A DNA stretch of 35,493 bases from a virus. Every line of letters starts with the position of its first letter. The first letter of the stretch is position 1. Below, piece after piece: positions 1,610-9,083 of the stretch. A model generated the notes under the pieces. That model made no database searches. It worked only from the letters and a program-made list of their open reading frames with translations, and had not been told where the DNA came from. The translations under genes were made by a program, and so were the position numbers. The stretch lies in the UHGV virus genome UHGV-0231292. One strand, 5' to 3'.

Positions 1610-2260
1610 TTACAAATTAAAAAACACCCTAGAAATGGCACCGCCTACCAAAACCCCTACGCAGATAAAGAATATTATTTCTTTTGGATAAAGTCGGATT
1701 AATTCTGAAGCACGAAGTCGAACTTCTGGTAAGGCCGAACTCTCTGTGTGACTTGATGCCGATTGTTGCTCTAACCACGACAATGCAGACTGTAACTGAG
1801 AACGAGTAAGATCGTTTAAACGTCCTGTACCGAAATTGATATGGCAATACCGCAGAAGTTTTTGTCGAAGTCCACAGTCTTCACTGTTACGTAGTAATAA
1901 ACTTACAAGAGTCTTACAGGCATCATGATCTTTACATCGCTCAAGCATTGCATGCAGAAAACTCTCCGCTGTTTTATATTGATTTACTGTCATATCATCA
2001 ATACCAGCTACACCAATCTCCGCATGTACTTTTTGCCAAATAATAAACGCTTCAGTATTGCTAGCTTCTGCAATAGCAGCAACCAAGCTATTTAGCTCCT
2101 TACGCTGAGCCTTAAGCAAAGGGCGATCGTCATCATCATTATTCGAAGGGATTGCGATATTGACGGTATGAGAACCATCATATCGCTCTATCTGAATATT
2201 CTTTTCGTGAAAATCACGCCCAGCAACGCGATTGTTTGAACCGTTTGAGTTGACGGCCAT
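1610..2260 (-). CDS. Hypothetical protein with C-terminal membrane anchor (cargo); N-terminus shares a 16-residue motif with the repressor C-terminus
   Basis: 216 aa; C-terminal hydrophobic helix EIIFFICVGVLVGGAISRVFF; N-terminal NSNGSNNRVAGRDFHE resembles repressor tail NISGGNNRIAGRDYNE. Confidence 0.5.
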   Translation of the reverse strand: MAVNSNGSNNRVAGRDFHEKNIQIERYDGSHTVNIAIPSNNDDDDRPLLKAQRKELNSLVAAIAEASNTEAFIIWQKVHAEIGVAGIDDMTVNQYKTAESFLHAMLERCKDHDACKTLVSLLLRNSEDCGLRQKLLRYCHINFGTGRLNDLTRSQLQSALSWLEQQSASSHTESSALPEVRLRASELIRLYPKEIIFFICVGVLVGGAISRVFFNL

Positions 2261-2275
2261 GTCACCTCCCTACTA

Positions 2276-2680
2276 TCACCTACCCTTAGTTTCGTTATAG
2301 TCACGACCAGCGATACGGTTATTACCACCAGAAATATTTAACTCACGTCCTGATGGCTGAGTTTCCTTTTCACTGATCGCACCTTTTAAAGCCCCGATCA
2401 CCGCGTTTTTCACATCTAACGAAGCTGCTCGAAAGCGAGTAATCAACTCCTGCTCATCATCGTTATAAGTTTCAGGTGAGTGAATTCCCAACACAACATA
2501 CTGAACATCAAGGCCAAAACGAGACAGCGCTGCCAAATACGCAGCATCAGGAAAGCTATCTCCTTTCTCATATCTAAGCTGAGTTAGCTTTTTGACTCCA
2601 CCAATGTCGCTCATGGCAACTTGACTAAGTCCCAATCTTTCCCTTTCCTCACGCAACCGCTGACCAATATCATTTTTCAT
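2276..2680 (-). CDS. XRE-family HTH immunity repressor (P2 C / 186 cI position)
   Basis: 134 aa; N-terminal HTH QRLREERERLGLSQVAMSDIGGVKKLTQLRYEKG; first gene of leftward operon, divergent from early operon. Confidence 0.75.
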   Translation of the reverse strand: MKNDIGQRLREERERLGLSQVAMSDIGGVKKLTQLRYEKGDSFPDAAYLAALSRFGLDVQYVVLGIHSPETYNDDEQELITRFRAASLDVKNAVIGALKGAISEKETQPSGRELNISGGNNRIAGRDYNETKGR

Positions 2681-2755
2681 ACAAAAACCTTGACAGGTAT
2701 CTTTTTTGATACCAAAATGATTTCACGAGCTATTAGATGATCACAATATACCACT
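2681..2755. promoter_or_regulatory. Lysis-lysogeny switch region with divergent promoters and candidate operator
   Basis: TTGACA, 17-nt spacer, CAAAAT on plus strand; the spacer holds the perfect palindrome GGTATC-TTTTTT-GATACC. Confidence 0.4.
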
Positions 2756-2962
2756 ATGAAACAAGTTCTTCACGATACCAGATCACGCATTCCGCGTAAC
2801 ACCGCCACAGGTCCAAGACTGGCACTTCGGCTGTCTCTCGAGGAGCGAGCCGTCATTGATGAAATGGCAGCTAAAGAACAACGCTCATCCTCTAACATGG
2901 CGCGCATGATCTTCCTTCGCGGCCTAGAGCTAACCCAGAAAGAACAAAACAAATCTTCCTGA
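2756..2962 (+). CDS. Ribbon-helix-helix-like small regulator (Cox/Apl position)
   Basis: 68 aa; RLALRLSLEERAVIDEMAAKEQRSSSNMARMIFLRG resembles an Arc/CopG strand-helix-helix fold; first rightward gene. Confidence 0.45.
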   Translation: MKQVLHDTRSRIPRNTATGPRLALRLSLEERAVIDEMAAKEQRSSSNMARMIFLRGLELTQKEQNKSS

Positions 2963-2978
2963 TCAGGAGGCTAGTGGG

Positions 2979-3182
2979 ATGTCAGGTATAACCATCAATA
3001 TCAATGTGAATGCCCCCTATGTATCCCTGCAGAAATATGCAGAGATAACAGGTATCCCTCTTAATACATGCAAAAAGATGTTGGCTGACGGTCGAATTAT
3101 TATCCGCCCCAAACGCGCCAAAATGGAAAAGCCTGAAGTAAACCTTGTGGCGATGTTAAAAGACGCTTTGGCTAACAGCTAA
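2979..3182 (+). CDS. Small HTH DNA-binding protein (excisionase/AlpA-like)
   Basis: 67 aa; YVSLQKYAEITGIPLNTCKKMLADGRI HTH-like segment; RBS GGAGG upstream. Confidence 0.45.
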   Translation: MSGITININVNAPYVSLQKYAEITGIPLNTCKKMLADGRIIIRPKRAKMEKPEVNLVAMLKDALANS

Positions 3183-3203
3183 AACAATGAACAGAGCATC
3201 ATC

Positions 3204-3554
3204 ATGAAAAAAAACACTAATAATCCATACTCCAAATTTCGTAATGGCGTAGAACGCCATGTACACCACGTCGCTACCAGTGCATCACGTAGTAACAGCC
3301 GCTATAACCTGAACGAGACGCACGCAACACCAGATGGGCACGCTGTAAAACAAATCGGCGAACACACCTGGCTGATTGAGAAAGCTGGAATCGTGGTTCA
3401 CAGATGCCCACACAATCCGTTTACCGGAAACCGCATTTTTGCATTAAGCAGCGGCGATAATCAGTTCGGGCAGGATTTCACATTGTACGAAGCACTACGC
3501 ACAGTCGATCGTCTGCTTCGCGGGCAAAGTTTTATTAAACAGGCTGCTTTATAA
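3204..3554 (+). CDS. Hypothetical early-operon protein
   Basis: 116 aa ORF, co-directional and tightly packed with early genes. Confidence 0.4.
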   Translation: MKKNTNNPYSKFRNGVERHVHHVATSASRSNSRYNLNETHATPDGHAVKQIGEHTWLIEKAGIVVHRCPHNPFTGNRIFALSSGDNQFGQDFTLYEALRTVDRLLRGQSFIKQAAL

Positions 3555-8123: not shown

Positions 8124-9083
8124 ATGAAAATTTGTATCGACGACGGCTCCACCAACATCAAGCTGGCATGGACTGAGAACGGCGAACGCCGCAACGCCAT
8201 CAGCCCGAACAGCTTCAAGTCGGAATGGTCTGCGCCGTTCGGTGGCACGCAGCCCGCGAACTACATGCTTGATGGCGTGCGCTATGGTTTTGATCCGGTC
8301 AGCGATCGCTTTGTCCAGACGACCGACACGCAATACCAGTACAGCGATGTGAATATAATTGCCATTCATCACGCGCTGGTCAAATCAGGCATCACACCAC
8401 AGGAAGTGGATGTGGTTGTCACCCTGCCACTGAGCGAGTATTTCGATACAAACGCACAGCCGGACATGGCCAACATCAACCGCAAAAAAGCGAACGTCAT
8501 GCGCCCGGTGGAGTACCAGAACGGCGAAGCATTCACTATCCGTAACGTACGGGTTATGCCTGAATCCATTCCGGCTGGCTTTAAGGCACTGGCTGACATG
8601 AGTCCGTTTGAATCCCTGCTGATTGTGGATTTGGGCGGAACCACTCTGGATGTGGCAAAGGTTCAGGGGCAACTGGCAGGTATCAGCCAGGTGTTTTGCG
8701 ATCCACACGTGGGCGTTTCTCTGATGGCCGATGCCGTACTGTCGGTGATGGCCACTAACGGTATGCGCACCAGTCACCACATCGCCAATACCATTATCGA
8801 ACATCGCCATGATGAAGCCTGGCTGCGCCAGCACATCCACAATGACGCGCATTACGCCAGCCTGATGGCGGTTATTCGTGAAAAGGAAGAAACACTGAAA
8901 CAACGCGTGATCCGCGCGCTGGCGGGTTTTTCGGGTTACGGGCGGGTGATGGTTGTCGGTGGAGGGGCGGAGATTGTGGCACCCGCTATCCGCGAAGCCT
9001 GCGGAGTTAATGCGACTTTCATCGCGGACGGGGTGCCACAGTTTGCTCTGGTTAATGGGCTGTACGCAATGGACAAGGAGTAA
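8124..9083 (+). CDS. parM: Actin-like segregation ATPase (ParM/StbA family)
   Basis: 319 aa; hallmark motifs IDDGSTNIKL, YSDVN, VMPESIPAG, DLGGTTLD, VVGGGAE, LVNGLY match ParM/StbA as recalled. Confidence 0.75.
   Translation: MKICIDDGSTNIKLAWTENGERRNAISPNSFKSEWSAPFGGTQPANYMLDGVRYGFDPVSDRFVQTTDTQYQYSDVNIIAIHHALVKSGITPQEVDVVVTLPLSEYFDTNAQPDMANINRKKANVMRPVEYQNGEAFTIRNVRVMPESIPAGFKALADMSPFESLLIVDLGGTTLDVAKVQGQLAGISQVFCDPHVGVSLMADAVLSVMATNGMRTSHHIANTIIEHRHDEAWLRQHIHNDAHYASLMAVIREKEETLKQRVIRALAGFSGYGRVMVVGGGAEIVAPAIREACGVNATFIADGVPQFALVNGLYAMDKE

Follow-up and report, generated by a model that had tools for sequence, protein, structure and literature searches.

A palindrome in the early-promoter spacer of a P2-like prophage as the probable operator of its immunity repressor

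Introduction

Among P2-like phages, only two types of lysis-lysogeny switch have been studied, those of P2 and 186, and further types have been anticipated (PMC3448106). Here we describe the switch region of UHGV virus genome UHGV-0231292, a P2-like prophage of 35,493 nucleotides (hereafter the window), and in particular a perfect 18-bp palindrome, GGTATC-TTTTTT-GATACC, in the spacer of its predicted early promoter, Pe. Comparison with related loci makes it very probable that this palindrome, O1 (positions 2696–2713), is the primary operator of the 134-aa XRE-type immunity repressor encoded next to it, the site from which that repressor shuts off Pe. A second, weaker operator (O2) is probable, and a repressor promoter that faces Pe (Pc) is likely. 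The switch region is 98.6% identical to that of Escherichia phage 520873 (Peduoviridae, Xuanwuvirus), and it occurs in 525 of 5,426 complete E. coli genomes (~10%), in 483 of them at an identity of at least 99%, with many O157:H7 strains included.

The operators recognised by P2 C, and in the seven P2-type immunity classes known, are 8-bp direct repeats that are 22 bp apart and flank the -10 element, and the P2 C dimer resembles palindrome binders (PMC2995052). The locus described here resembles that of P2, which likewise belongs to the Peduoviridae, in that the start of a leftward repressor gene abuts the Pe -35, an element of the operator (here the predicted O1) falls within the Pe spacer, and Pc (here a candidate) is convergent and located to the right (PMC1904263). 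Both repressors have an XRE-like helix-turn-helix (HTH) fold, with a weak N-terminal similarity of 33% over 46 aa; only residues 1–46 align with the 99-aa P2 C, and homology over its full length is absent. Unlike in P2, each predicted site is an inverted repeat. O1 lies wholly within the spacer, no direct repeats of the P2 C type flank the Pe -10, and the probable O2 is upstream of the -35. The repressor, at 134 aa rather than 99, has extra C-terminal elements, and the place of Cox is taken by an Arc-like ribbon-helix-helix (RHH) protein and a distant Cox-like protein. The initial annotation had set the palindrome against the direct repeats of P2 C and linked the difference to the XRE-type repressor of this locus. 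The contrast in operator geometry holds; the supposed contrast in fold does not, because P2 C also has an XRE-like HTH.

Dodd and Egan reportedly found the CI sites at pR of phage 186 to be inverted repeats. These sites fall within the leader transcribed from a convergent lysogenic promoter, a further point of likeness to the arrangement predicted here, and the geometry of the Pc candidate is the same as that of 186 pL, whose -10 is 5 bp before the apl ATG and whose -35 is inside apl. In contrast, the two starts are 62 bp apart in 186 and would be only ~13 bp apart here, and no cII homologue was identified. BLASTP found no similarity to the HTH region of 186 CI, the only alignment being short and C-terminal (16 of 39 residues, E 8e-4). 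Operators corresponding to FL and FR, which would lie ~300 bp away, are likewise considered absent, because the one candidate distal site (3051–3068) fails the covariation test described below.

The operators of P22 (2R1J and 3JXB) are 18 bp long and two-fold symmetric, with outer bases that are contacted and an A/T-rich centre that is not. The present locus has in common with the switches of P22 c2 and 434 cI a five-helix XRE domain in the repressor, a predicted operator over the core of the lytic promoter, and, probably, a site close by for a second dimer. It differs from them in that the repressor lacks an S24 peptidase and has instead a two-helix hairpin and a disordered, conserved tail; in that two sites are proposed instead of a tripartite OR; in that the antagonists would be the RHH and Cox-like proteins rather than Cro; and in that the predicted repressor promoter is convergent with the lytic promoter, whereas PRM is divergent. 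As judged from sequence, the element is a further type of switch, in which a predicted palindromic operator in the style of P22 c2 and 434 is set in a convergent-promoter frame in the style of P2 and 186.

The Palindrome and the Predicted Early Promoter

Positions 2681–2755 are exactly the 75-bp intergenic gap between the leftward repressor gene (2276–2680, minus strand; XRE-type HTH, phrog_8, E 2.5e-14), whose start codon (CAT on the plus strand) occupies 2678–2680, and the rightward early operon, in which the ATG of the first gene is at 2756. The arms of O1, at 2696–2701 and 2708–2713, are separated by a centre of equal length (6+6+6). Pe is read from the plus strand and consists of a sigma-70-like -35, TTGACA, at 2690–2695 and a -10, CAAAAT, at 2713–2718, the first C of which is the last base of O1. 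The initial annotation had placed a perfect palindrome precisely between these two elements, and the coordinates (2690–2718) bear this out: the 17-nt spacer is wholly occupied by O1, with 0 mismatches between the arms. O1 is a two-fold symmetric site within the ~14–20 bp of a classical palindromic phage operator, and it overlaps core elements of the predicted promoter. Within 2200–3300, Pe is the sole sigma-70-like match (10 of 12 positions), and the pattern TTGAC[AT]-N16-18-nAnnnT occurs once in the 35.5 kb of both strands.

Homologues of the repressor were gathered from one-genome-per-species contigs, IMG/VR, E. coli genomes, and a protein collection. All loci with the repressor as the first leftward gene have a TTGAC-type -35 and, at a distance of 17 nt, a CAnAAT-type -10, with an inverted repeat filling the spacer between them. 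For the analysis of covariation, 15 distinct sequences from 9 genera that share the register of the window were used. TTGA of the -35 is invariant and C5 nearly so (alignment A4); the -10 is CAnAAT in 14 of the 15 relatives and CATTAT in the Salmonella locus; and the distance between them is always 17 nt. Complementarity across the six arm pairs amounts to 95.6% of cells, compared with 17–57% when the 3′ partner is slid by 1–3 columns. Three of the six pairs have undergone changes on both sides. Arm position 4 is changed from A:T to G:C in E. coli L003 (GGTGTG...CACACC), position 5 is changed from T:A to C:G in E. coli L102 and Erwinia L106 (GGTACG...CGTACC), and position 6 is represented by four pair types. 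The perfect 18-mer is kept in 44 of 46 near-identical IMG/VR copies. More distant repressors are accompanied by unrelated palindromes at the same place, namely ATTTGC-N8-GCAAAT in Arsenophonus, ATGGGTA-N6-TACCCAT in Pseudomonas, GAGATC-N4-GATCTC in L094, and ATGACTACAAATGTAGTCAT in L097.

Repressor Specificity

The half-site follows the predicted recognition helix of the repressor. Helix VKKL(T/A)QL is found with GGTAT in seven genera (Escherichia, Klebsiella, Serratia, Salmonella, Yersinia, Pectobacterium, and Gilliamella), (I/V)RKQTQL with GGTAC in Escherichia, Erwinia, and Hafnia, and VKKWTQI with GGTGT in Escherichia. The three half-sites GGTAT, GGTAC, and GGTGT correspond to L, Q, and W, respectively, at residue 32 of the repressor. 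The Klebsiella repressor is only 65% identical to that of the window, and its 18-mer is identical. Operator sequence and recognition helix therefore co-vary in the manner expected for immunity specificity, and by this sequence comparison the half-site goes with the helix and not with the host. Because the half-site tracks the helix, residue 32, which stands second in predicted helix 3, is the best candidate for reading base pairs 4–5.

A natural exchange of modules is seen in loci L094 and L095. Their RHH proteins are 94% and 91% identical to that of the window, respectively, and their Cox-like proteins 93% and 100%, whereas their repressors are only 43–47% identical and their spacer palindromes are unrelated (GAGATC-TATT-GATCTC and TAGGAAGTTTTGTTCCCTA). 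A sliding identity profile against these two loci delimits a swapped cassette at ~2300–2720, made up of the HTH domain, O2, O1, and Pe, between flanks that are 88–100% identical. The mosaic boundaries are sharp, with identity dropping from 88–100% to ~50% between the repressor tail motif and the Pe -10 and then recovering; because of this, the specificity cassette seems to recombine at the tail-motif DNA and in the region of the Pe start.

These exchanges bear on the possibility that the palindrome is an operator of the Arc-like RHH or the Cox-like protein, acting in a Cro-like role instead of or together with the repressor. Precedent for such an arrangement exists, in that Cro and CI share operators in lambdoid switches and RHH proteins bind short repeats. 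However, because the palindrome changes with the repressor while the RHH and Cox-like proteins stay 91–100% identical, neither of the two is a likely ligand of O1. In the loci of Gilliamella and Pectobacterium the early gene is of the Ner type and both RHH and Cox are missing, but GGTAT...ATACC is still present; the Pseudomonas relatives, in which the first early gene is also of the Ner type and RHH and Cox are lacking, have a spacer palindrome as well. Moreover, the sequence block that does travel with the RHH/Cox module is a different one, GATCACAATATAnCAnTATG, at 2739–2758. We consider it very unlikely that either early protein is what the palindrome serves, and take the repressor to be its probable reader.

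The Salmonella homologue P0087, tried as an independent test of the ATTTGC specificity, was uninformative, because its gene comes second in a tandem pair of repressor genes and lacks a promoter of its own. In some relatives (L108 from Salmonella and L012 from Arsenophonus), two repressor-family genes stand in tandem, their HTH domains different but their tail motif shared. In L062, an IMG/VR copy from E. coli, O1 is broken off after GGTATCTTT by a junction to the 3′ end of another repressor gene. These three loci may represent double-immunity or decaying prophages.

Weighing the Operator Assignment

Several observations count against O1 being the operator of the repressor. A perfect 6+6 inverted repeat (spacer 0–10) arises in 20% of mononucleotide shuffles of the 75-bp gap, and the window contains 72 perfect 6+6 repeats (spacer 4–8), or 0.15 per 75 bp; by sequence alone, O1 is within chance expectation. 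One-sided changes occur at outer arm position 1 or 2 in some natural copies (TGTATC in L002; GATATC in L033 and L101), which indicates that perfect symmetry is not strictly required. The Pfam HTH_31/HTH_3 matches of the repressor are under the gathering threshold (HTH_31, 23.2 versus 27 bits). The candidate O2 of the window matches the O1 arms at only 8 of 12 positions and overlaps coding sequence, where codon constraints add to the similarity, and the candidate Pc has a weak -35 (GTGAAG, 3 of 6 matches). Finally, the literature on Sp13, CP-933T, Xuanwuvirus, and P2-like immunity gave no binding, footprint, reporter, or transcription-start data for this element.

The frequency of comparable repeats is what would be expected if the palindrome had arisen by chance in an A/T-rich promoter spacer and served no function of its own. 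The palindrome is taken to be non-random because it is placed in a promoter pattern that occurs only once, and the stronger argument is its conservation with compensatory change. Conservation of position, compensatory changes, and covariation of helix and half-site extend over at least nine genera, and near-identical copies are almost all perfect. A functionless palindrome is therefore scarcely credible.

Chance is not the only alternative that makes no use of a DNA-binding protein. With Pc at 2753 to 2745, the palindrome would be transcribed on the minus strand, and it could form a stem-loop (GGUAUC-A6-GAUACC) in the leader of the repressor mRNA that controls stability or translation, with no protein site involved. 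Such a hairpin is present in the minimum-free-energy structure, the compensatory arm changes are equally compatible with an RNA stem, and some of the imperfect variants amount to G:U wobbles (L011 and L103 on the plus strand; L033, L101, and L067 on the minus strand). However, the RNA folds no better than shuffled sequences (z = -1.55; an equally good fold was reached by 13 of 200 shuffles), Rfam has no match at the site, no terminator-like site was found in 2200–3300, and neither stability, a U-tract, nor membership of an RNA family marks the palindrome as a structured RNA or intrinsic terminator. An RNA stem requires complementarity only, whereas the GGTAT arms persist in seven genera with diverged flanks and change with the recognition helix. 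In addition, the arms recur 30–34 bp away as a second site of the same sequence rather than as a matching stem, and in every relative, the Ner-type loci included, the position of the palindrome is fixed with respect to the -35 and -10 of a promoter on the opposite strand. On this evidence an RNA element is highly improbable. The proposal of the initial annotation, an operator in the early-promoter spacer that an XRE-type repressor would bind in a palindromic mode, is favoured by phylogenetic footprinting, by covariation between the arms and between helix and half-site, and by the natural module swaps.

A Probable Second Site

In order to locate further sites, each locus was scanned for extra matches to the arms of its own O1. 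The best such match is 30–34 bp left of O1, over the repressor start codon; in the window it is AATATC-ATTTTT-CATACA, at 2666–2683, 30 bp left of O1. The agreement is closest in Pseudomonas L013 (13 of 14 arm positions) and Arsenophonus L012 (11 of 12), where the background frequency is below 1e-3 in each case. Eight of 12 positions match in the window (background frequency 0.02) and also in L094 (0.025), and the match in L003 is weak (7 of 12; 0.10). As a cross-control, each arm motif was found to score highest in its own locus. GATAC is present at the O2 position in two of the three GGTAC-class loci but is missing from every GGTAT-class locus; in L102, it results from a fourth codon TGT (Cys) in place of GAT (Asp), so that GATAC stands where O1 has GGTAC. 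O2 is a probable second, weaker operator on the strength of these matches, and its spacing from O1, about three helical turns, would suit cooperative binding.

Two additional candidates were rejected. A possible distal operator at 3051–3068 (GGTATCCCTCTTAATACA, 2 mismatches) is the same in L095 despite the different repressor and O1 of that locus, and is altered by synonymous changes in L094 (GGCATT); consequently, it is conserved only as coding sequence of the Cox-like gene. The half-site GATACCA at 2774–2780 is found in L094, which has another repressor, and reads GACACC in L002, L063, and L095, although L002 and L063 share the repressor type of the window.

A Candidate Repressor Promoter and a Conserved Block

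The Pc candidate is an extended -10, TGGTATATT (TGnTATATT), on the minus strand at 2745–2753; neither strand of the window contains another TGNTATAWT. Left of Pe, the gap leaves no room for a separate leftward promoter, and gene order and strand fit a convergent Pe/Pc pair with the repressor first in the Pc operon. From its uniqueness and conservation, Pc is likely to be the repressor promoter. Transcription would be expected to start at ~2738 leftward and ~2725 rightward, with the promoters face to face. An alternative leftward -10, TCTAAT at 2737 to 2732 with TTCATA as its -35, was rejected, as it has a C at essential position 2 and is not conserved.

Pc falls within the conserved block GATCACAATATAnCAnTATG (2739–2758), which is invariant in all RHH-type relatives whatever their type of repressor (alignment A2), its single freely varying base being the unconstrained n of TGn. 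The block is absent from the Ner-type relatives and goes with the RHH/Cox-like operon. It may be Pc itself, an operator of the RHH and Cox-like proteins, or both. The block is more conserved than the adjoining coding sequence and contains a GATC (Dam) site. Five TCAC-containing 7-mers are present in and around it, at 2723 (TTCACGA), 2741 (ATCACAA), 2751 (ACCACTA), 2770 (TTCACGA), and 2783 (ATCACGC). These are spaced by about one or two helical turns, recalling the direct-repeat arrays of Cox/Apl type, and are partially conserved outside the central block.

Proposed Mechanism

A repressor dimer would place one recognition helix (residues ~31–39) on each GGTAT(C) arm, across an A/T-rich centre that is probably uncontacted. 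Because the 18-bp O1 fills the whole -35/-10 spacer, the bound repressor would keep RNA polymerase off Pe by steric occlusion. With Pe off, the Arc-like, Cox-like, and replication genes would be silent, and both lysogeny and immunity to superinfection would be maintained. A second dimer could occupy O2, probably in a cooperative manner and perhaps by way of the helical hairpin at residues 74–104. The repressor gene itself is probably transcribed from Pc, which faces Pe, and repression of Pe would relieve interference on Pc. Because O1 and O2 lie inside the Pc leader, high occupancy could in turn limit repressor synthesis.

The Repressor Protein and Induction

A profile of ten homologues, searched against the PDB, gave the DNA-binding domain of P22 c2 as the best match (E 4.9e-9); the 434 repressor (E 1e-4) and P2 C (2xcj/2l49; E 3e-3) were matched as well. 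An AlphaFold2 (AF2) model built from 25 sequences predicts a five-helix XRE domain at residues 1–65 (pLDDT, the per-residue confidence score, ~90), a hairpin of helices 74–85 and 88–104 (pLDDT ~72), and a disordered tail. Foldseek matched the model to the P22 c2-operator complex (TMt, the target-normalized TM-score, 0.83–0.85; root-mean-square deviation (rmsd) 1.6–2.2 Å), with SinR also at the top and P2 C at rank 40 (TMt 0.66). Profile and structure search thus agree that the gene adjacent to O1 encodes an XRE, or lambda-repressor-like, HTH domain. SinR oligomerises through a helical hook, which its antagonist SinI targets. Like the present repressor, SinR of Bacillus subtilis, the top Foldseek match over 104 columns, has an XRE HTH followed by a two-helix C-terminal element; the likeness is one of architecture only, at an overall rmsd of 7.3 Å and an identity of 20%, and no SinI-like partner was identified.

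Homologues found by tblastn include BcepMu gp17 (52% over residues 19–91), KS10 gp13 (40% over 125 aa), and the repressors of B3 and Ps59 (35%). The BcepMu/B3-type phages resemble the present element in having homologous repressors, and Pseudomonas prophages with the repressor/Ner layout (L013 and L091) carry both a spacer palindrome and a candidate O2. The BcepMu/B3-type phages differ in having a Ner-type early gene and a transposase rather than a P2-type replication and morphogenesis module. No operator studies of BcepMu/B3-type repressors were found in the literature.

The disordered tail of the repressor bears a conserved motif, NRIAGRDYNETK (window 2276–2330, residues ~117–134). In the general form SG-G-[NHQ]R[IV]AGRD[YF][NH]E[TN]K, this motif is kept among repressors of unrelated DNA specificity, from E. 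coli to Pseudomonas. In nearly all relatives it is repeated at the N-terminus of a 216-aa Flk_N-domain protein (MAVNSNGSNNRVAGRDFHEK..., window 2200–2260). The occurrence of one motif in both the repressor tail and a membrane protein that is probably co-transcribed with it suggests a common partner, for example a degron reader or an anti-repressor.

Peptidase_S24 has no match in the 134-aa repressor, which in this respect differs from the full-length LexA-like repressors (lambda CI, P22 C2, and 434 CI), where such a C-terminal domain allows self-cleavage stimulated by RecA. Sp13, a P2-like prophage of O157 Sakai, is inducible by mitomycin though its repressor is without a peptidase motif (PMC2669165). 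We infer that Sp13 is the element described here, because it is the only P2-like prophage in O157 Sakai. A LexA box, which was sought near the switch as an explanation for mitomycin induction, was not found there; CTGT-N8-ACAG occurs once in the window, within the replication gene, which is no more than chance frequency.

Neighbouring Genes

Leftward, the repressor gene is followed by the genes for the 216-aa Flk_N-domain protein, a DUF2511 protein, and the integrase. The first of these (1610–2260, minus strand), a tail-anchored membrane protein assigned through Pfam Flk_N matches of its homologues, is encoded directly downstream of the repressor. Rightward, the order is the Arc-like RHH gene, the Cox-like gene, DUF4761 and other small open reading frames, and the replication protein. 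The RHH protein has 68 aa (2756–2962, plus strand; phrog_3431 ‘Arc-like repressor’, E 9.8e-29), and its gene is annotated as Arc-like in phage 520873 also. The Cox-like protein has 67 aa (2979–3182, plus strand; phrog_575 ‘Cox-like excisionase and repressor’, E 1.2e-27) and was not matched by P2 Cox or 186 Apl in BLASTP. PDB sequence searches with these two proteins gave nothing useful.

The Shine-Dalgarno sequence of the repressor gene, AAGG (2688–2691, minus strand), is 7 nt before its ATG and shares two positions with the start of the Pe -35 hexamer; L094 has the same arrangement, GTCAAGG. The Arc-like gene has no recognisable Shine-Dalgarno sequence (2725–2758 region), and CAATAT on the plus strand stands 7 nt ahead of its ATG; the next gene has CAGGAGG (2964–2970). 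It is possible that the first early gene is translated independently of a Shine-Dalgarno sequence or that its mRNA is nearly leaderless.

Right after the replication gene, a 319-aa open reading frame (8124–9083) matches phrog_691 ‘partition protein’ (E 7e-90). No tRNA or tmRNA genes were detected in the whole window (1–35493), the vicinity of the integrase included, and the host gene flanking phage 520873 is yecA; for these two reasons the attachment site is apparently outside a tRNA gene.

Implications

A broader proposal is that the locus represents a third class of lysis-lysogeny switch in the P2-like Peduoviridae, defined jointly by three features. The cassette that sets specificity (HTH domain, O2, O1, and Pe) would pass between phages as a single unit, Mu-like transposable phages among them; the Arc-like RHH and the Cox-like protein would share the anti-repressor role that Cox has in P2, acting at the separate conserved block over Pc; and induction would operate through the disordered tail motif NR[IV]AGRD[YF]xE that is repeated at the N-terminus of the Flk_N protein. 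We regard this combination as unlikely. If it were true, induction via the tail motif could explain how Sp13 is inducible by mitomycin with no peptidase domain in its repressor.

The mechanism proposed for O1 is conventional, with a textbook placement of the operator, and it holds no conceptual novelty. Its most useful by-products are the code relating residue 32 to the half-site, the second operator, and the conserved tail motif. The operator assignment names mutations with which the silencing and induction of this prophage could be probed, and the family may offer small repressor/operator pairs that are naturally orthogonal and ready for use. Immunity groups among these prophages would be predictable from sequence, with GGTAT, GGTAC, and GGTGT classes assigned by way of repressor residue 32.

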